Notes: generated by a model from the sequence alone, not told the origin. Numbered from the whole stretch's first letter, positions 6,430-63,440 are shown. The stretch is 63,757 bases of DNA, filler included, from Collodictyon triciliatum (GCA_043381765.1; 42 parts of 42 records of this genome joined end to end with filler, not necessarily neighbours in it), one strand, 5' to 3'. Numbers and translations: made by a program.

Positions 6430-7323
6430 TTACTGAAGGTTATGGTAGACTTGGTCAACATCATCGTGGTCCTCCAAATTATCAAGAAGTTGGCTGAACC
6501 CTTCAGCGCCTTCTTTGTCGTCGACCTGATGGGTTGTGTTTGGGACGAAGGTCACCTATCATGGATAAATTTGGATAAAAAATCAATTCAACAGCACGGG
6601 CTCTGTTTTTTAGTTTAGTATCTCAAAGCTCTATATCAGAGGGAAAATACGAGGTTCTTAGAATACATTAGACACCATTTTACATACTTCAGCAGAGGAC
6701 GGATGAATGTCAGCAGACTCAAAAGATGTTTTAACCGAGAAAAATGAGCCGGGTTGGCAGTATACCTATGTTTCGTAGATTCAAATCTAGATATTAGTTT
6801 AACTATTCACATCTATCGTAATAGTTTGAAAATATGTCCTAAATTACTAAAGCTTGAAGAAGGTGTTTCTATTGTAAATTATATGTCACTTATATTTCTT
6901 TCCTTTATTCGATGAAAAAGATTTATCACTTATATAATCCAATAAGTATATAAGCTTTCGAAATACCAGGATTTTTCCACCATGCTCTTCGGTTTGGTTG
7001 ATGACATTAGTTGCGCCCGCCTCTATTGCAATATCCGTAATCTAAGATGCTTTGGAGTTCAATAATAGAAGTATATCAAATAATTTTGAATTGAATAAAG
7101 AGAACCACAAATGATTTCAAATGTTGTGGAAAATTACTCTCTTCCCTTTCTCTTTCTCTTTTCTTGGTAGGTAGAAAAAGAAACCAATAACTGGTTAAAC
7201 AATCGTTCGAGAATTCAAATTCAGCGAAAAGGAACCTTTTCTTCTCCATATTTCCCTTCGAATTGGAGAACTCCAAGACGATCAAACATCCACATCACGG
7301 ACCCATTAGACCCAAGATTTCCG
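6430..7323 (-). CDS. TACO1: YebC/PmpR-family protein (TACO1-like), C-terminal four exons
   Basis: Spliced exons GNLGSNGSVMWMFDRLG / ITDIAIEAGATNV / VYCQPGSF..SSAE / VTFVPN..LLDNLEDHDDVDQVYHNLQ*, all YebC-family hallmark motifs. Confidence 0.9.
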
Positions 7324-7474
7324 CTGCATATCGAAAATCAAAATACTTTTTACCATTAAACGCATGGAGAAAATAAATTATGATGGTTCTGACTATGCAT
7401 TATGTCTGCTGATTATTATTTTCCTTTATTCGATTCAAAGTGTATCTGCTGATTATTATTCTTTTTTTTTTTTG

Positions 7475-9452: not shown

Positions 9453-10583
9453 TTAATCAAGAAGCTTCTGTCCTTGTAAATAGGTCTTGACCCAATCTTT
9501 ATCCAATTTATATTTTCGATATTTAATATTTTCAATTCCAATTTTTTTTAGCTCACGACCAAATCGTGCGTGCGTAAGAATACCATCTTGTTTACGTCCA
9601 GCATTCTCCATAACACGACGAAATAGAGCGTATAATTGACAGGGGCTCATTTCGTTATTATACGGTTCCTGATAACTTACATATTCAATATTGTCTAATG
9701 GTTTATCAGGATCTTCTTCTAATGTTTCATATGTCAATAGCAAGAACTGGTCCAGTTGAGAGATTTGCAATTGTAATTGAGCTTTCCACAATTCTTTATC
9801 TTTTTGCTGGTATAAAATGTAATGTTCACTATTCCAGTCTGAATCCATATTATCGCGTAAGAATCTAACAAAATTTAACACCGCGTCTTGATTATTAATC
9901 ATTGCTTTTAAATTTATTTGCATCTCTTGAGACATTTTTTGCTCTTTACACTGTATAATAGCATATCTACGATTACTTTGACCTACAGTAAAAACGGTAT
10001 CGTTATTAGTAGCACAACAAACGTGTATGTAATTGTTAGTCGTGTATTTGGAAAGGCCCTTCTTATGGATGACAATATCATCCGACACCAAATTGTCTTT
10101 CATAACATCGACAAATTTTGTAGCCTCTTGACGTTGCCCTTCCTCAATATTGATATATATTTTGTTTTCAATAAGGTCATTAAACTCGCCGAACATTTCG
10201 CTCATCTTACTAGTTTTTACACCGTATGTTTTGCCAATAATTCTTTTATAAAATAAATCTTGTAGAATAAATGATTTGCCAATTCCCTCTGTCTGACTGT
10301 AAAACACCAAACAAGTATGAAAGCGGTCCATTTCATGAGGCTTAAAAATGAGATGTGCAAACCACTGCAGAACGTATGCGTAGGCTTCTTTGTCTTCATT
10401 ACACAGATAAAACCAAATGGTTTGTAATATAAAATTACATTGTTCCTCATTGCCCTCTCCTATGTGTATGTCTCCGTGCTTTTCGATTTCAAACCCTTTG
10501 AATAGGTTGTAAGTGTTGGGATATTCCTCTTGGTCAAGGTCTTTTGGTAAATCAGGTCGCATAACAAGATGTTTTATTAAACG
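9453..10583 (-). CDS. SF3 helicase of phage/virus primase-helicase type (D5/DUF5906-like), 5'-truncated
   Basis: Intronless ORF of at least 369 aa, open to the contig edge. Motifs YNLFKGF, WFAHLIFKP, Walker A SQTEGIGKS, Walker B INIEE, motif C CATNN, Arg finger RRY. Confidence 0.85.
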   Translation of the reverse strand, partial: RLIKHLVMRPDLPKDLDQEEYPNTYNLFKGFEIEKHGDIHIGEGNEEQCNFILQTIWFYLCNEDKEAYAYVLQWFAHLIFKPHEMDRFHTCLVFYSQTEGIGKSFILQDLFYKRIIGKTYGVKTSKMSEMFGEFNDLIENKIYINIEEGQRQEATKFVDVMKDNLVSDDIVIHKKGLSKYTTNNYIHVCCATNNDTVFTVGQSNRRYAIIQCKEQKMSQEMQINLKAMINNQDAVLNFVRFLRDNMDSDWNSEHYILYQQKDKELWKAQLQLQISQLDQFLLLTYETLEEDPDKPLDNIEYVSYQEPYNNEMSPCQLYALFRRVMENAGRKQDGILTHARFGRELKKIGIENIKYRKYKLDKDWVKTYLQGQKLLD

Positions 10584-18965: not shown

Positions 18966-19733
18966 ATGGAGCCAAGTTCGAGACATCCTCCTTTCACAGT
19001 TTCTTCTATAGGTTTGGTACAGCAATCACCAGATGACCAAGGTTTTCTTCTCCAAAAATCGCAGATAGCCCATCAAAAAGTGTATACCTCTTACGACACA
19101 ACCGCGCCTTCAAGAGCGTCTACAAATGCACAAAGTGGGATGCCACCTCAGTCACCATCGCAGCAAAAAGCGTATACTTCTTACGACACACTTGCATCGT
19201 CAAGAGCAGTTGCAAATGCGCAAAGTGGGATGCCTCAAAATTTCACATCAAACCATGAAAGCAAAAAAGAAATTCGAGATGCTGAAACAGGCTCTATCTC
19301 GGTACTAGTAAATCGCAGAATGGAAGTAGATATCGATGCCAGTGGAAATAGGAAAGCAGGCTCCGCAAACACACACGCGACTTCTAGAGCCGTCTATGAA
19401 AAAGATCTACGAGATAACAAACATGGCCAAGTGGAAGAAAAAAAGGATAAGGGAACAAAGTACACCGTCGATCAAATTACAGTGAAAGATTCAAGCTCGA
19501 TGAAATACACTGGTGATGCCTCATCCAGTCTTACTGCGTTATTAGATATCGAAGAGGAGGGTTCCCTTGTCCATTCAAAGGGAAGTTCAAAAAGCAATAC
19601 ACTTTGGAGAATTAATAAACCTTTTCGGCATCATGGTGATATTAAAATCTTTGTACGATTACTTGGTGAAGAAAAAGATAAAGAATTGCTTTTAGATGAT
19701 TTTAACCGTAGGACAAAACAAGCATCTGAGAAC
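18966..19733 (+). CDS. Hypothetical protein (3'-truncated) with an internal 30-aa duplication
   Basis: Stop-free ORF over 250 aa; QK(V/A)YTSYDTxAxSRAxxNAQSGMP occurs twice, 90 bp apart. Confidence 0.6.
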
Positions 19734-21357: not shown

Positions 21358-22143
21358 GTCGTTGTATGCTCTCCAATCGATGCGCTTCGGGGATGCTGGC
21401 TTTCCTCCAGCTGTGTCTAGGAACGACACTATAGCACTGTGGTCCGATAGGTTCGTGTCGAATGTGTGCATCCATTTGAACCATGGCGACGTCTCGGTAT
21501 TGCACAGGAACCAGTCGATTCTGCTCCACGTCGGCCGCTTCTTGTTTGACGCCTGCACGTAGCTCCAAGCAGATTTGGGTAGAGAGTACTCCATGGGTCA
21601 TGTAGATTATGTTGATTGACCCAGTTGAAGAATGGCTTGTCTTGTCTTGTGGACACGCCTGTCCATTCTAGCTCTGGGTCAAGGACTGCGTTGAAGTCTC
21701 CACATATGATTGTATGAGGGGTTGTCGAGCTCCTTAGTGAGTTGCTCGAACTCCCCCATTCTTGTTTGGAGGCCAGTCGTTTGGATGACATGTAGCACGT
21801 GATTATCCTTGTTGTTTTCCCATCCATCTGGATACCCATGCTTATGGCGCGGCCGGGGGTAATGACTTTGAAGATGGACTTTAGCTTAGCAATCCGCCTT
21901 TTGCATAGGATTGCTACGCTGGCATGTTTGTGTTGTGATGGTGATAATGATGGTGACCATAGCTGAAGGCCCTTCCACCCGAAATCAGTAAATTGGGTCT
22001 CAGGGCTCTGCCACGTCTCTTGAAGACAGATGATATCCGCGCGGGTGAAAAGAGCTGTCTTGATAAACCTCTTTCCGCCTGTAGGGGTCGTTATTCCCCC
22101 TAGCGTTCCATGACAGAACCCCGAAACGCATGGTCTGTTATTA
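21358..22143 (-). mobile_element. L1-like non-LTR retrotransposon, ORF2 APE endonuclease, frameshifted
   Basis: MRFGVLSWNARG..DIICLQETW..IICGDFN..SRIDWF..LSDHSAI (APE motifs) spread over several frames; preceded by TAA TAA CAG ACC ATG. Confidence 0.9.
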
Positions 22144-22904
22144 AAGGGCTGTAGGGATGCTAATCATGAATGCTTTGTCTCGTAATCATACAAATAATGG
22201 CAAAGCCGAGCCTTATACCGCTACGATTGAAATCCGTCCCCGCTTAAAGCTGAAAAAGTATATATAACTACTTCGCTCTCTGGCGGATTATTTTCGTCTT
22301 TTAAACACGATGATTAATGGCATAAAATACCAGTAGTGAAGCTCGCCTCTTCTCATCGACTTTTGCTCTTGACACGAGCCTTTCCATTCGAAAAACCACC
22401 ACCTTGTCTTTCTGCACAGATACTGATGTAGCACCCAACAACATTGCTAAACTCACGATAAAATTACCTCCCACTTCAAAGCCCCTATTCTGTGGATGAG
22501 TGTCACTATTGAACTTTTTTCCCTTTATTCGATTCAAAGTGGCATTATTGTACTTAATGTAGTCCTCGGAAAGACAGAGTATAAAACAAGTATTCTCCCA
22601 TTCTTCCATCTAAGTTACGAGCTGTTTCGACTGCTTCCAACACAACCAAATCGTCACTTTATGTAGGGTTGCTATCCAGCTAATAAGCTCAACCTGCTCC
22701 TGCTCTCGACCCGCTCATTTTGTTCACCCATGAGGTTTTTGCTCCATTAACAATTTGATTATCTGCACACGATGTCCTGGTNNNNNNNNNNNNNNNNNNN
22801 NNNNNNNNNNNNNNNNNNNNNNNNNTTAATTAATTAANNNNNNNNNNNNNNNNNNNNNNNNNNNNNNNNNNNNNNNNNNNNTTTCTTTTTCTTTTTCTTT
22901 TTCT

Positions 22905-24304
22905 TTTTCTTTTTCTTTTTCTTTTTCTTTTTCTTTTTCTTTTTTTCCGCCTTCCTCTGGCGGGATGCGTTTGTGGTGAAAGCAGCAGGCCACGCGCGTT
23001 GGGCATGATTGGCTGTGGCGAAAGGGGACAATGGATCAAGCTGTGCCTCAATTACCGTATAATATAAACCATATATAAATTGCGGTATCGAAGGTGATGC
23101 TTCCTGTTTTGTGTGATAGGCTCCTGCCAGAAAGAGCGGTCTTTGCACACAGGGAGAACGCGGAAACGCTCCCAAAGGCAGAACGGTTCAAAGCACTCAG
23201 CAAATAATTCTTGCATACAAAGAGAGACCGCCTCTTCCTTCCGTTATTATATGCGACATCCCGCTGGCTTCAACAAGGGCGCCTCCGAAGAGGCCTGCAG
23301 AACAATATTCTCACCAATCCTCGTATACTTGGACACTCGAGATGGGTCTCGAATAACGATGCGCTGCACACGTCTCCAAACCCCAATCTAGACCACCGAG
23401 AGCAGAAAGACCTTCATCAGTGGCTCAATCCAAGTCGACGAAACAAACAAACATAGCCAACTTCATGCTCCAGAAAAGCCCCGATGTGACTCCAGCAAAG
23501 CGCGAGCAAATATCGAATAGCCCTAAAGAAGCGAACTCCAGCAACGACTCGCATCATCTCTCACCCGCGTCCCAAGATTTACGAGCAACCAAAACGAAAC
23601 AAACTACCGGCACACTACAAAACATCATCCATAATATTCGCGCAAACTCTAGCCCCAAAATGAAAAAGCATAGAGCTGACAGCCTCACCGGAAAACACAC
23701 AGCTCTACCGCAGAGGCCGTGGCGTCATCCTCACATCACACAAGGAAATCAATTACATCAAAATCCCGAAGGATGTATGCTGAGGTACCAAAAACAACTT
23801 CCAATAACAACAACCATAGCTACAGATGCACCCACAATCGCCACGACCGAGTCAAAATAGAATATTATTGTTGTTATTTTATTCTTCCTTTCAATTTTGT
23901 GCAGGATGGTGGAGATAGTGGCTTTGGTTACCGAGTCAGCACATATATCCGCAAGTACAATTAAACACGAAGAGAACGCTTCTACTCCCACAGAGGGTCC
24001 TCCCTCCATCCATTAGTAACAGACCATGCGTTTCGGCGTTCTGTCATGGAACACTAGGGGGATTAACGACCCTAACAGGCGGAAAGAGGTTTACAAGACA
24101 GCTCTTTTTACACACGCGGATATCATCTGTCTTCAGGAGACGTGGTGAATTATGATGTTGAATTTAGTGTATATTTGGTCATAAAACAAATGCGTCCAGA
24201 TGCAAAAACATTCTGGGCAGTGACGCGAGGCCATTTGCTATGGACTATGTGGATAGCGCGCATATACTCACGCAAAGCAAGACTCAACAACCAGCCACCC
24301 ATTC
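22905..24304 (+). mobile_element. Decayed LINE: ORF1 remnant, ORF2 start (APE 24026-24145), joined to a family-A ORF2 C-terminal fragment (~24170-24304)
   Basis: MRFGVLSWNTRGINDPNRRKEVYKTALFTHADIICLQETW is near-identical to the 22131 copy; RPDAKTFWAVTRGHLLWTMWIA matches 43458-43946. Confidence 0.8.
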
Positions 24305-27729: not shown

Positions 27730-28660
27730 GTTAAAGAAGATGGCTCGAAGCAGCGGATGGGATGTAACGCTTATAGACCATCGGTGGAACGTTCCAGCAG
27801 ACGATTTCAGAACTCATGACGTGAGAAATAGCTTGCATGATATTGTCCTCTTATTTTACGTACCCATCGATTTAATGATGCCTGCATTTATTTATTTTTC
27901 AAGTCAGAATAAATTATTTACATCTTCTCGTGAGAGGAAAAATCGGCAAGTTTCGCCCTAATTATATGTGTTATGCTTGGAAGGTTGTTCGAAAATGTTT
28001 GCAAGGCGCCCTATCTTGCGACTACTTTGTAGTGATTTTAGGCTCCAGGTTTGTTTCATTTTAATCACTGAAAATTCCAACAGCCTTGAACCAAAGAGAC
28101 AGAGAGACAGAGAGACCGAGAGAGAAGAGAATTGCATATATAGCTACTCTAAGATATTCCTACTAAAATCAACAACATTTAAAGATACGACTGGTGTCCC
28201 GATGCAGAAAACAGGCATGAGTGGGATTCCTCCATAGAATCTGCATTTCCTTGGACAAAAGATTGCCGGGGGAAGAGCTTGGTTGAAATGGAGGTATTTT
28301 TTTCCCCTTTATTCAATTCAAAGTTGAAATAGAGATAGTTAATCATTCGAACTTAAGTGATGTCTGGTAAAGGACAACTTCATCTTGTTTAAATAGTAGA
28401 TTAAAGGAACCCCTATTCTCTACTTCCTTTTCTAAAAAAAAAAAAAAACTGGCTACGAATGTTCTCTACACTTAGCAGAATTCGTCCATTTCACCTTTGC
28501 TGAATGATTACAAATTATTTATTAATTATTCTTGCAGATAAACGGGGCAGTTTACGATTCGCAAAGTGTTGTTTCAAAATGCTTCTTTTTCATAAGACCG
28601 TCTGATATCTCTTCCAAGGTTCAAGAAAAATGGAGACTCCCGTCAGAAAGCTCCAAAGGG
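27730..28660 (+). CDS. DUF4062-domain protein (TEP1/NPHP3/NWD-type N-terminal domain), partial
   Basis: Exons VTLIDHRWNVP (cf. DLRWG), RYDWCP (cf. RYG.P), KSLVEME / INGAV..KCFFFIR (cf. S.TE.E..ffy.R). Confidence 0.65.
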
Positions 28661-30759: not shown

Positions 30760-31906
30760 TTTCGGTAATATACTCCAGTTATTTGGCTGTGGTGTAAAGT
30801 CATAGATATTACTCCATGGGTTGATAAATGGATTCAAGCGAGACTTCTTGAAATGCTCTATTTGAATTACGATATATTGATAAGTTATTCTTTGATTTTG
30901 TCCGTTCGAAAAGTTTGTGCAGTAATTCAAAAGTGTTAGGAGAAACCTCTTAACAAGTCATAGTGAAATTCAAAGCAGCCAAATCTCATGTTCACAGATG
31001 ACTCAATGATGGGCTGGGTCAAAGCATATAACTTGATATCGACATCTTGGCAATCACGGGTTCTGAGAAAATGAAAAATTCTTTATGAGGAATATCGACA
31101 AAGTAGAGTTTGCTTCTTGATATGACGATTTCTTCAAGAGGTTCTTTACTTTACTTTGCTTCAATAAGATATTATGAATGTTGTATATTTTAAATATATT
31201 TTTCCCCCATTATTCAATTCAAACTATATCAACAATACACTACAAACCTAAATTGCTGACAGGCCACAATTATTTGACTGTTCTGAACATTCCGAATAAA
31301 TATACTGCAATTATGTAATGAATAGATTAAGAGAAAGGAATTCGCAGTATGAAATATCATAAAGCGTGATAAACAGTAGAGAAATAAGTATGACATGTTA
31401 CGAAATGTACATACAATCAAAAATATTCAATATCAGTAGTGTTTGTATCCATTAATATTCATGACCTAACCTGCCACCTATCGGCCCAATAAATATCCTG
31501 CAATCATTGCAGTGATCAATGGTGACCTGTGTCATGTGGTCCAAAAGGAATATATCGCATCCCTCACAATGGTCGATGATGAACTGAAGACCATCGATGG
31601 TTCTTTAAAAGATAAAGACATGGCCATATATATTTTTTAGAAAACAAGATAGATAGTCAAGAACTGATTGTGAGTGATGATTGGAAGCGAATATGGTGAA
31701 CATTTTTTAACAAAAAAAAATAATTATAACATCAATAGAAATAGAAATAGAAATAGAAATAGAACCCAGGCTCACGAATCAGCGTCTCCCCTGTCTTCTG
31801 GGAGAAAGTATAGTCCTTTGGGTCGGGCCTTGGTTTATCCCAACTGTACTGCTTCTTCTCCGGGGGAGCCGAAGCCGCACTTCCCGATTTCGCCTTTTCT
31901 TTCTCC
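30760..31906 (-). CDS. RP2: XRP2/RP2 (TBCC-domain Arl3 GAP), partial
   Basis: KQYSWDKPRPDPKDYTF / GLQFIIDHCEGCDIFLLDH..VTIDHC..IFIGP / IIVACQQFR / TRDC..TQPIIESS..FGCF / NPWSNIYDFTP. Confidence 0.92.
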
Positions 31907-56392: not shown

Positions 56393-57469
56393 CAAAACTC
56401 CATTTGTCGATTATACATCACTCAAAATATGGATGCATACCGAGTATTTAAGGACACTATTGTCATGGTTTTTTTTTTATTCTTCCTTTCGATTTGTGCA
56501 AGATGGTGGGAATGTTGGTGTGATAGAGACATAGCACTCACCCACGTATTATTACCCATCGCAACCACACCCATCAGAATATGCCTATCGTTGAAAGGCA
56601 TGTCCTACCGTCACCCAAGAAGTCTTTTGGGCGCAGGAAGGAGCAATCTGAGCCCTTGAACGTTCCGAAGGACAAAGTTCTCGAAAGTCATCAAGCCAGT
56701 GCCCCAGATTCGTCAGCCATGAAGGCTCCAACACACCCCACCAGAGGCGGTCGGGTCTCATTGCCCCCGCTTCCCATCTCCGTGGCCGCAACGAGAACAA
56801 CTTTGATATCTGAAACGGCGTCCCTGAAAGGAATTACTTCGCTTCCCCCTCTCGCACTGCCTCTAAGCTCTAGTCCCTGCGATGCATCACACCCAGCATC
56901 ACAAACCCCAGGGGCAATTCAAGGAGCTTCCTTGGTGGCCAATCCAGAACATGAAACTCCTTCCTCGACTGCACATGAGCCGCACAAACCCATCTCAGAG
57001 GCTGCATCGGCTTCTCTGGATACCGCAAAAGCTCAAATGACAGAAAGTCATGTCGCCTCAATCCAGATACCTGCAGATTCGTACACAACTATCGACCTTT
57101 CAAAGTACCGTTTGGAAACCCTCCCAAAGTGCCCCTTGTGTGGGAAGAGTGCACGACCAAGTATATATGTCTCATGAAATGGATGAATTCTTCATCTTAT
57201 TTTCAAAATAGAAGGCTACTACTTTTGTGGTTATTGAGTTGTGTGTCGTAATTTCTTTATTCAATTTATTGATATGAAAGGGTTTATGCCCATGTTAATA
57301 TAGAGTTTATTAATCATGCTTAGGCATATACCTAAACGAAGAAGATTATTTTTGGATTAGCAATCACGCCTGCTGGAAGAATTATTTGTCTTGGATGATT
57401 GAGGTATGTAGGCAATCAAAAGCGAACAAGTGGAAGATTGTAATACTCGAGCTTGGGGCTGACCAAAGG
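56393..57469 (+). CDS. Sirtuin (Sir2)-like protein with a long Ser/Pro-rich insert, partial
   Basis: LPKCPLCGKSARP / SIYLNEEDYFWI..KIVILELGA (intron 57163-57323) resembles Sir2 PxCxxCGxxxRP and ELG motifs; upstream YITQNMDA resembles TQNID. Confidence 0.6.
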
Positions 57470-57917
57470 GTTCGTATTATAGAATTTTAAATAGAACATA
57501 CGGCCTAATTCCCATATTCTCTATTTTCTTTTTTGGAAATATTCTCTTTTTGTCTTAATCTCACCTCATTTTTCTTCTTTTCTCTTCTCTTTCTTCTCTT
57601 TCTTCTTTTTCTTCTCTTTCTTCTCTTTCTTCTCTTTCTTCTCTTTCTTCTCTTTCTTCTCTTTCTTCTCTTTCTTCTCTTTCTTCTCTTTCTTCTCTTT
57701 CTTCTCTTNNNNNNNNNNNNNNNNNNNNNNNNNNNNNNNNNNNNNNNNNNNNTTAATTAATTAANNNNNNNNNNNNNNNNNNNNNNNNNNNNNNNNNNNN
57801 NNNNNNNNAAAGAAAAAAGAAAAGAAAGAAAAGAAAAAAGAAAAAGTAAAAAAAAGAAAAGAAAAAAGAAAAAGAAAAAGAAAAAAAGAAAATATGGAAA
57901 AGATAAAAGATAAAAGA

Positions 57918-58175
57918 TTTTTTTCCCTTTATTCGATTCAAAGTGTAGCGAGGTTATGCCATACAAAGGGGCGGGATGGGAGCGCATGGTAGAACAAACG
58001 TGAGTAAGAGAAGACACAGTGGATATGATAATACTGGAAAATAATCGATAATAACGAGTAAGTCAGGTGGGCGTCCGAAGTGGTTGATTGGATGCGTGGG
58101 TAGCAGGGGTTGGATATACTGTGAGATATCGCACGACACATTCCCATATTTCCCTTCGCTTGCGGTCAGAGTAAC
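57918..58175 (-). mobile_element. 5'-truncated LINE family B copy with complete 3' terminus
   Basis: Reverse complement of 46860-47092, extended to ...cgctacactttgaatcgaataaagggaaaaaaa. Confidence 0.88.
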
Positions 58176-58749
58176 CGGGACGTGCGGGCTTACTTCCAGC
58201 TTTTAACTATCGGCGGGTCAATAATGCCTATAGTTTGGGCTCATCGACTCATTTTCTACAGTATGTAAGGATTCGGACTGGTGATATCATATCGAAACAG
58301 CTTGGAATATGTCATGGTCATCGAGAAAATGCGGAGAGTTGAGTGTGTTTGACCGTCTTTGGTGTAAAAAAAAAAAAGCAACTTAATACCTTCAGTCGTA
58401 CAATGTAGAATCTTTTTTTTTTCCTTTATTCGATTCAAAGTACAATGTAGAATCTTAACTGGTCTGTCTGGTCGGATGGGATGAGCTCGTTGAAAAAAAA
58501 TGTATTTATCCCGCCATTTGCTCAATACCAATTTATTGGATTTCACGTCATAATCGATGCGAGTGTACATTTGGGTTGGAAATCATTTAGTAAGATATTT
58601 TAGTGTTCAGATGTGCGATACAACCCATTCGATTACACCCAAATTCATATTGATAAAAAAACCGACTGATAAAAAAATAAGGCATAGAAAATCCAGAAGA
58701 TATTTTTGATAAATAATCCAAAACATGAAATGAGTGTATAAAATGATAA

Positions 58750-62440: not shown

Positions 62441-62555
62441 AAAATAAACAAAAAAAACAAAAAAAAAACAAAAAATACTCAAATCAATAAACAAAACACA
62501 TCAGTGACGTGTTCTCAACCGTAACTCCCCACACCCAGGTAAGCTCGCCGGAGCG

Positions 62556-63440
62556 ATGCTCTCGTCCCAGTGCTCCAACTGCCTCACCACAAACACTCCA
62601 TTGTGGAGGCGCGGTCCAAAAGGGCCGAGTGACCTGTGCAACGCCTGTGGAATCCACTGGGGTCGGCTTGGAATCCATCGACCTTTGGATGGAACGCCCA
62701 GCACAACTTCGATTTGCTATTCCTTTGAGACTCCAGGGAGCAGCACTAGTTATTTGAGCCACTCTTCTGCAGATTGCGAGTCTTTTCCGTCCCCTTCTCA
62801 AAGTCCTGCGTTTCACCCTGGTTCACCAGACACTTCTAGTTCTGTTGACCATCCTCGGAAACTTTCGAAACGCGGTGCACCCGAGCAGAAAAAAAGTGAA
62901 GCAGCCGAGCTAACTTGCAGGCTAGATCCGCTGGAAGGATCGTACCCCACCTCAGACGAAGAGTTTGAACCGCGCAGGAAAAACTCAAAGGCTGACCCGA
63001 TGATTGACTGGGTTATGTGTGATTTTTGCTATAAGTGGAGAAAGCTTCCAAGTTCTGTTCCTAAGTCCTCTATTCCAGACGAGGTAGGAATTACATAATA
63101 TACTGTTTTCTTCCTTGCTTCTTTCCCTAACATTTAAAATTTCTGTGACGCTACATTGTGTTCCATCGAAGACAAGACCCTTTTTTTAAAATGCCTGCGA
63201 GTTGAAAGTATACAATTTTGTTTTCATCTTATCTCCTTTCATCTTCCATAACTATTTGGTCTTTATTTTCCTTAATATTTTATGTCTCCTAATGTAGTCG
63301 ATTGTTGTGATATTAATGGATCCTTCTCCCTTTACAGTGGACATGCAGTATGTTTCCCGTCAAGGAACTCGCGGTATGCTCGTTTCGCAATCCTCCCAGG
63401 GTAACGGCGTCTATATCCACACCAATACCGCCTAAAAAGA
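62556..63440 (+). CDS. GATA zinc-finger protein with a CW-type zinc finger
   Basis: [27 protein letters not shown] (CX2CX18CX2C); [18 protein letters not shown] / WTCSM..AVCS across intron 63083-63337. Confidence 0.88.

Follow-up and report, generated by a model that had tools for sequence, protein, structure and literature searches.

Short insertions matching the 3' terminus of a putative L1-like LINE, enclosed by direct repeats, in Collodictyon triciliatum

Extreme 5' truncation, target-site duplications of the size described here and microhomology at the junctions are textbook features of L1 retrotransposons; in 'stringent' LINEs, such as the eel element UnaL2, the enzyme recognises a specific 3'-end sequence. 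For human L1, excerpts of PMC2912911 report target duplications that peak at 14-16 bp and junction microhomology in ~80% of the 5'-truncated copies, with full-length copies lacking it, and interpret truncation as abortive synthesis healed by end-joining; excerpts of PMC11702581 are similar on truncation and microhomology, and give TT/AAAA as the L1 target site and a median length of 712 bp for de novo insertions. A poly(T) insertion in NF1, in which almost only the tail was inserted, may according to PMC3219598 (in excerpt) be an Alu, L1 or pseudogene that underwent severe truncation. Other short retroposons are the SINEs with a borrowed LINE 3' tail, which combine a short unit, a LINE-recognised 3' end and flanking duplications with the use of LINE proteins, and Platy-1, at ~100 bp, is described as the shortest primate SINE in the excerpted text of PMC4864456. 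Here, we report short insertions in DNA from Collodictyon triciliatum (GCA_043381765.1) that share with 5'-truncated human L1 the A-tail, variable duplications within the L1 range, an A/T-rich nick site and 5'-junction microhomology, while differing from it in that they are mostly 17-25 nt long, end at nearly the same base and carry tails of only 2-10 A. Unlike the NF1 poly(T), a rare single event, they keep a recognisable ~20-nt piece of an element and recur. They are like the SINEs with borrowed tails, yet they are 4-5x shorter than Platy-1 and have no room for an internal promoter or a non-LINE head: the 3' part is common to a partner LINE, and neither a pol III promoter nor a tRNA, 7SL or 5S head is present. 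Such a micro-insert probably does not propagate from its own copies.

The window, that is the whole stretch of 63,757 nucleotides analysed, consists of 42 contigs of 1410-1427 bp in descending order of length, joined by N44-TTAATTAATTAA-N44 spacers (for example at 1428-1527 and 57709-57808), and neighbouring 'regions' of it are therefore unlinked. It is not one locus; the recurrence of one insertion structure on several contigs had been pointed out in an initial annotation of this DNA. The sampled DNA amounts to about 60 kb in 1.4-kb contigs of a fragmented assembly, a slice that is biased and repeat-rich. It is eukaryotic in character, with about 35% G+C and many micro- and minisatellites, and it has long ORFs free of introns, with WD40, ephrin-receptor-like, GATA/zf-CW and leucine-rich repeat features. 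At least two families of non-LTR retrotransposons, LINE-A and LINE-B, are present in the window.

The sequence GTACAATGTAGAATCTT occurs as a perfect direct repeat at 58398-58414 and 58440-58456 (17/17 identical), and the interval between the two copies, 58415-58439, reads TTTTTTTT+CCTTTATTCGATTCAAA, i.e. T8 followed by CCTTTATTCGATTCAAA. The end of LINE-B lies on the same contig and strand at 57918-57945 (T7 CCCTTTATTCGATTCAAAGTGTAGCG...), and 58415-58441 matches it at 26/27 bases in the same orientation on the plus strand. Both a perfect 17-bp repeat around 58415-58439 and an insert representing the reverse-complemented LINE-B 3' terminus, with the LINE sense on the minus strand, had been put forward in the initial annotation, and both were recovered. 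We refer to this insertion as m1, with the following parts.

58398-58414, no strand: left copy of the 17-bp target-site duplication of m1, identical to 58440-58456; 0 of 3000 random sites score as high
58415-58422, minus strand: A8 tail of m1 (T8 on the plus strand)
58423-58441, minus strand: last 17-19 nt of LINE-B in m1, within the 26/27 match to the LINE-B end
58440-58456, no strand: right copy of the 17-bp target-site duplication of m1, from the repeat census

In LINE sense, m1 thus consists of the 5' duplication AAGATTCTACATTGTAC, the insert TTTGAATCGAATAAAGG and the tail A8, and its final GT at 58440-58441 (AC in LINE sense) is a microhomology common to the insert and the target duplication. 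Nesting of m1 within the adjoining long LINE-B copy was considered and rejected: sensitive blastn found no LINE similarity past ~58196, and we therefore regard m1, at a distance of about 200 bp, as an event of its own.

Three longer stretches of LINE-B were identified in the window, as follows.

57918-58196, minus strand: longer 5'-truncated LINE-B copy of ~270 nt with an A7 tail, on contig 39; it defines the 3' end of the element
46758-47093, plus strand: LINE-B copy of about 360 nt on contig 31, 5'-truncated near 46758
50230-51646, plus strand: LINE-B body on contig 34, with an RT ORF at 50234-51430 and a downstream region overlapping 46758-46834

The copy on contig 39 aligns at about 57943-58173 with 47093-46856 of contig 31 (86% identity over 238 bp), with weaker similarity continuing to ~58196, and no target duplication was found around it. 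The copy on contig 31 is cut by the contig end 21 nt short of the LINE-B 3' end; its stretch 46787-47011 displays tblastn similarity to the C-terminal part of the LINE-A ORF, a protein similarity that persists in LINE-B to about 100 nt before the A-tail. The end of contig 34 overlaps with contig 31 at 93.5% identity, and the ORF at 50234-51430 matches RVT_1 (1.1e-32) and, below cut-off, zf-RVT (0.0013). From the contig overlaps and the RVT_1 ORF it follows that 57918-~58196 is the 3' end of an RT-encoding element. Among solved structures (PDB), the best match of this RT is human L1 ORF2p (3e-29), with R2 at 2e-14; in a large protein database its closest relatives are at most 37% identical, the named ones being plant and charophyte L1-type proteins (26-30% identity), and relatives of the RT carry PF03372. 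Since the RT is nearest to L1 ORF2p and its relatives do not exceed 37% identity, LINE-B is, as judged from its sequence, a divergent L1-like non-LTR retrotransposon. No endonuclease ORF linked to LINE-B was found on any contig of the window, the Exo_endo_phos (apurinic-type endonuclease) ORF at 21429-22163 grouping with the LINE-A-like contig 16, and the window holds no full-length LINE-B copy. The end of contig 31 (47093) reads ...CGCTACAC, within 2 nt of the micro-insert start, and the assembler graph could have branched at this point because the ~25-mer that follows is very abundant.

The A-rich 3' tails are A7 on the long LINE-B copy and A2-A10 on the short copies, and such short, uniform tails suggest priming on a short encoded A-tract. 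Together with the conserved terminal block, they also suggest a recognised 3' end, as in stringent LINEs of the UnaL2 kind; unlike these, LINE-B has an RT that is L1-like and not L2-like, and folding showed no conserved terminal stem-loop. Folding of the last 123 and 263 nt of the LINE-B RNA was no better than that of shuffles (z = +0.90 and +0.71, respectively), which leaves an enzyme-blocking hairpin at the LINE-B end unsupported. A self-cleaving ribozyme or a small-RNA gene in the LINE-B end was likewise discarded, as Rfam families matched neither the window, with gathering scores as the cut-off, nor contig 39 at E <= 1.

We searched the window for the 18-mer CCTTTATTCGATTCAAAG with up to 3 mismatches and obtained 9 matches, when 0.18 were expected and 0 of 100 shuffles reached 9; its first 12 bases, with at most 1 mismatch, matched 7 times versus 0.62 expected. 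Besides m1, seven short copies were delineated.

7405-7460, minus strand: m2, perfect 16-bp duplication (7405-7420, 7445-7460)
22500-22555, minus strand: m3, duplication 14/17 (22500-22516 / 22539-22555), CAC microhomology
28282-28337, minus strand: m4, duplication 13/15 (28282-28296 / 28323-28337), AC microhomology
6886-6935, minus strand: m5, duplication 10/10 (6886-6895 / 6926-6935)
43239-43294, plus strand (LINE sense): m6, duplication 11/13; absent from the list of the initial annotation
7082-7109, plus strand: m7, degenerate short copy, TTTGAATTGAATAAAG variant with no clear tail and a weak duplication of 10/13 (7069-7081 / 7110-7122)
31200-31227, minus strand: m8, degenerate short copy, T5 C5 ATTATTCAATTCAAAC, duplication 7/8

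The insert of m2 (7421-7444) comprises 22 nt of the LINE-B end, all of them matching (22/22), plus an AA tail; in LINE sense it reads as 5' duplication AATAATAATCAGCAGA, insert TACACTTTGAATCGAATAAAGG and tail AA. In m3, which is hosted by a LINE-A-like contig, the insert (22515-22541) holds 18-21 nt of the LINE-B end plus A6 and matches it at 27/27 bases (5' duplication AAGTACAATAATGCCAC, insert TTTGAATCGAATAAAGGG, tail A6). The insert of m4 (28298-28324) holds 19-21 nt plus A7 (5' duplication TATCTCTATTTCAAC, insert TTTGAATTGAATAAAGGGG, tail A7) and has changed from the LINE-B end by CG to TG in LINE sense (CA on the plus strand). Altogether, m1 to m4 match the LINE-B end at 25-27 of 27 bases (22/22 for m2), and the matching stops at the duplication. 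The m5 copy is a 24-nt insert followed by AAAGAA, the last 12 nt of which are the exact LINE-B end while the first 12 are only loosely alike; m6 is a 25-nt insert with A5-6 whose last 11 nt, TCGAATAAAGG, match the LINE-B end, beyond which G4 stands for G3 and then only loose similarity is seen. These two may represent diverged subfamilies, or may be filler in part. Finally, m7 and m8 show in degenerate form a TTGAAT variant that is also present in m4. We grade four of the short copies as clean (m1-m4), two as fair and two as weak. Among the further sites listed in the initial annotation, those at 7405, 22504, 28282 and 6886 held up, while that at 7077 is weak (10/13, p = 0.052). The contig that holds m2, m5 and m7 also has, at 7246-7260, an exact 15-nt match to the internal LINE-B 3' region 58144-58158, which may be due to chance.

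We monitored the flanking repeats in two ways. A motif-blind census of the window for perfect direct repeats of >=10 bp with a gap of 5-80 nt, tandem arrays being excluded, returned 13 non-tandem repeats. The LINE-B terminus lies inside the two longest, of 17 bp (58398/58440) and 16 bp (7405/7445), and the motif is also found inside one (6886/6926) of the seven repeats of 10 bp. The repeats of 14 and 12 bp that come after the top two are part of a 90-bp coding repeat at 19074-19234; a census of imperfect repeats gave the same top ranks. The coding repeat consists of two imperfect 71-bp copies 90 bp apart in a 286-aa frame that has no Pfam match, and these copies account for the census repeats ranked third and fifth. 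In the second approach, repeats abutting the insert were scored at ten motif sites and compared with 3000 random non-tandem sites scored alike, with the following result.

58415 (m1): 17/17, reached by 0/3000
7421 (m2): 16/16, reached by 0/3000
22515 (m3): 14/17, p = 0.003
28298 (m4): 13/15, p = 0.0013
6896 (m5): 10/10, p = 0.0007, optimistic, the insert limits having been set after the repeat was seen
43250 (m6): 11/13, p = 0.0047, optimistic for the same reason
31207 (m8): 7/8, p = 0.036
7084 (m7): 10/13, p = 0.052
43312: p = 0.20
30102: p = 0.63

The flanking repeats thus go far beyond chance: six short copies (m1-m6) reach p <= 0.005 against the 3000 random sites, two of the six with perfect repeats (17 and 16 bp). 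Their target-site duplications measure 10-17 bp, have an A-rich start and are preceded by TT in three of six copies, a pattern similar to the TT/AAAA site of L1. The window is rich in micro- and minisatellites and built of short contigs, which would be a setting for chance repeats, tandem-repeat slippage or assembly artefacts; we nevertheless give such an origin a negligible probability, as the same 18-mer is enclosed by perfect 17- and 16-bp repeats at two unrelated loci, the scores of these flanks are reached by none of the 3000 controls, the motif count is reached by none of the 100 shuffles and the repeats lie outside any tandem array under the census filter. The site at 43312-43338, about 30 nt downstream of m6, is a loose look-alike of the LINE-B end (T8 then CTTCATTCAATTCAAAAA), with flanks at chance level.

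The motif might also have come from elsewhere than LINE-B, as the tail of a SINE-like non-autonomous retroposon sharing the LINE-B 3' end or as a host motif captured by LINE-B. That m5 to m8 differ from the sole LINE-B terminus in the window, with no matching long copies found, would agree with such a source. We consider it very improbable, since m1 to m4 follow the LINE-B end up to the duplication and stop there, the motif is nowhere in the window attached to a longer non-LINE sequence and searches for tRNA-, 7SL- or 5S-like RNA families gave no match. With flanks beyond chance and co-linearity with the true 3' end of the element, the initial proposal of target-primed retro-insertions made of the last ~20 nt of LINE-B plus its tail is upheld.

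The lengths of the copies are clustered. In all 8 short copies the 5' end lies 19-25 nt ahead of the A-tail, within 6 alignment columns, and a sensitive search of the window with the 263-nt LINE-B end revealed no copy of 26-250 nt, the longer copies being of ~270 nt (contig 39), ~360 nt (contig 31) and >=1417 nt (contig 34). Of about 10 LINE-B 3' ends in the window, 6-8 have a length of just 17-25 nt. Long repeats break contigs in a fragmented assembly, and this biases the sampling of LINE-B copies; the gap at 26-250 nt is not due to it, because such a bias cannot have taken out these lengths and left copies of 270-360 nt in place. Under uniform truncation over the last 270 nt, the probability that six copies are all <=25 nt is about 6e-7, and if lengths fell off as a monotonic exponential above the 12-nt detection limit, the observed clustering would have a probability of 0.0002-0.002 even with the best-fitting decay, with test windows that in both cases were chosen after the data had been seen. 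The stereotyped end point suggested by the initial annotation therefore agrees with the window, in that 8 of 8 starts fall in 6 columns, none lies at 26-250 nt and three of four clear junctions share the same AC, although the copies are few and the tests post hoc; a stereotyped ~20-nt end point is consistent with the window on 8 copies.

A steep but smooth truncation by a poorly processive enzyme, of which these copies would be the short extreme and no special class, could give a similar picture if the ~20-nt peak resulted from small numbers and a detection limit of about 12 nt for LINE-B tail copies, below which copies go undetected. Indeed, the match to the LINE-B end covers only 12 nt in m5 and 11 nt in m6; should their other 12-14 nt be filler and not a diverged subfamily, the lengths would range over 11-22 nt and the peak would weaken. 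The short LINE-A copies of 41 and 49 nt also indicate that the length is not fixed at 20, and a tail-only truncation has been proposed for the human NF1 poly(T) insertion (PMC3219598, in excerpt). Such a smooth process is nonetheless unlikely, given the 0 copies of 26-250 nt against 6-8 of 17-25 nt, the poor best exponential fit, the three junctions at exactly the same base and the long LINE-B copies, which demand a second mode anyway.

The junctions bear on how the copies end. The duplications of m1, m3 and m4 finish with AC, CAC and AC, respectively, and these 2-3 bases are also the ones found in the LINE just ahead of TTTG; the same microhomology junction is therefore seen in 3 of 4 cases; the 5' junction of m2 lies 3 nt further along LINE-B and has no microhomology. 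By chance, three or more of four junctions would show at least 2 nt of microhomology with a probability of about 0.0007-0.0014. The duplications that flank the short copies, their tails, their co-linear match to the LINE-B 3' end, the grouping of their 5' ends and the microhomology at their junctions, together with the L1-like RT, lead us to hold with moderate confidence that these copies are genuine retro-insertions made by the L1-like LINE-B machinery, in which target-primed reverse transcription ends after ~20 nt and microhomology end-joining seals the product. The LINE-B endonuclease would nick an A/T-rich target, and the freed T-rich DNA end would prime on the short A-tract of the LINE-B RNA. 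The RT would then copy only ~20 nt, corresponding to the A/U-rich terminal block ...ACUUUGAAUCGAAUAAAGG(G), and the second strand would be cut 10-17 bp away. The very short cDNA would pair by its tip with the upstream target end, in most cases over 2-3 matching nt (AC/CAC) just before TTTG, and host repair would fill the remainder, leaving a ~25-bp insert and a duplication of nearly the same length. That synthesis is cut short and does not run to the end of a short RNA is what we infer, as is the cause of the stop at this place. The terminal 20 nt of LINE-B are A/U-rich (7/20 G+C) and abut G+C-rich sequence upstream, and a pause where the weak hybrid meets this sequence could, we suggest, release the hybrid.

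Alternatively, the enzyme could run off a pre-shortened template, with the LINE-B RNA cut or trimmed to a ~20-25-nt tail piece that keeps the A-tract and is copied to its end, for example after trimming by a 5'-3' exonuclease stopped at the bound RT or by a guided nuclease, so that the micro-inserts would be full-length copies of a tiny template. The 8/8 starts in 6 columns followed by a gap up to about 270 nt are as a fixed-size template would give, the short uniform tails (A5-A8 on the long copy and most of the short ones) point to an enzyme engaging a defined 3' end, and m5 to m8 have the same overall length despite their differing sequence. We regard this possibility as doubtful, since 2-3 nt of microhomology occurs at 3 of 4 clear junctions, a feature that in human L1 goes with truncated copies in the excerpted text of PMC2912911. 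In addition, no ribozyme or known RNA family was detected in the LINE-B end or the window, and a 25-bp insert is too small for a promoter, so that the template would have to derive from LINE-B transcripts. Because 3 of 4 junctions show microhomology, early termination with microhomology joining is favoured over run-off on a pre-cut RNA, and the junctions lean towards abort plus end-joining when these are weighed against a tiny template.

In its boldest form, which we entertain as a minor possibility, the template idea would make LINE-B the source of a discrete 'nano-retroposon', i.e. a defined ~20-25-nt RNA tail piece, perhaps protected by the bound RT. No smaller unit mobilised by target-primed reverse transcription would then be known; its insertions would outnumber those of the whole element and would leave thousands of AATAAA-bearing scars of ~25 bp, hidden from repeat annotation. 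Were this true, the fixed 5' end would map the grip of the enzyme on its template. Read in LINE sense, each micro-insert has an AATAAA with an A-run that begins no more than 3 nt after it (e.g. 58423-58439 and 7423-7444), and copies in genes could on this basis add a polyadenylation-like signal; the micro-inserts are probably neutral scars without function.

Searches of open-access papers by words, in themselves weak evidence, found no paper on recurrent ~20-nt LINE-tail insertions with a near-fixed 5' end that outnumber the longer copies. A 16-base degenerate pattern run against bacterial and archaeal genomes (596 Gb) gave at least 120 loci, where ~1100 chance matches were expected; those listed are all single, lie in unrelated bacteria and are taken as chance matches, and the T-run and the AG extension are both present in 1 of the 120 matches listed. 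If a ~20-nt class holds genome-wide, it would mark the commonest failure of an L1-like enzyme, or template trimming, right after initiation, a step that is hard to see in cells because neither reporter assays nor repeat masking picks up its products. Annotated genomes may then hide a real share of the retrotransposition events, which would appear only as short indels with flanking duplications; if the class fails, the copies would be the short end of ordinary 5' truncation.

The 3' end of the second family, LINE-A (ATTCTTCCTTTCRATTT...), occurs three times in the window, including two short copies.

56468-56518: short LINE-A 3' copy of 41 nt with a T11 run
23877-23929: short LINE-A 3' copy of 49 nt with a T4 run

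No target duplication was detectable at these two copies, the flank scores of which are at chance level. With 3' copies of 41 and 49 nt (n = 2), early stopping may be general in this genome, with family-specific lengths. On contig 16, 23881-24304 is a LINE-A mosaic in which the 49-nt 3' end lies opposite to endonuclease (24001-24145) and C-terminal (24166-24304) fragments, and which could be a 5'-inverted or nested insertion.

Other frames in the window were also recorded. The contig at 12211-13634 (plus strand) is as a whole one frame with 11 ephrin-receptor-like cysteine-rich repeats (4.8e-86), and a frame at 62508-63098 (plus strand) combines a GATA zinc finger (1.1e-15) with a CW-type zinc finger (1.1e-06). 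Finally, a 376-aa frame at 9453-10583 (minus strand), which runs off the contig end, displays DUF5906 (1.2e-12) and VapE-like (5.6e-06) matches, a primase-helicase kind that occurs in large DNA viruses and mobile elements.
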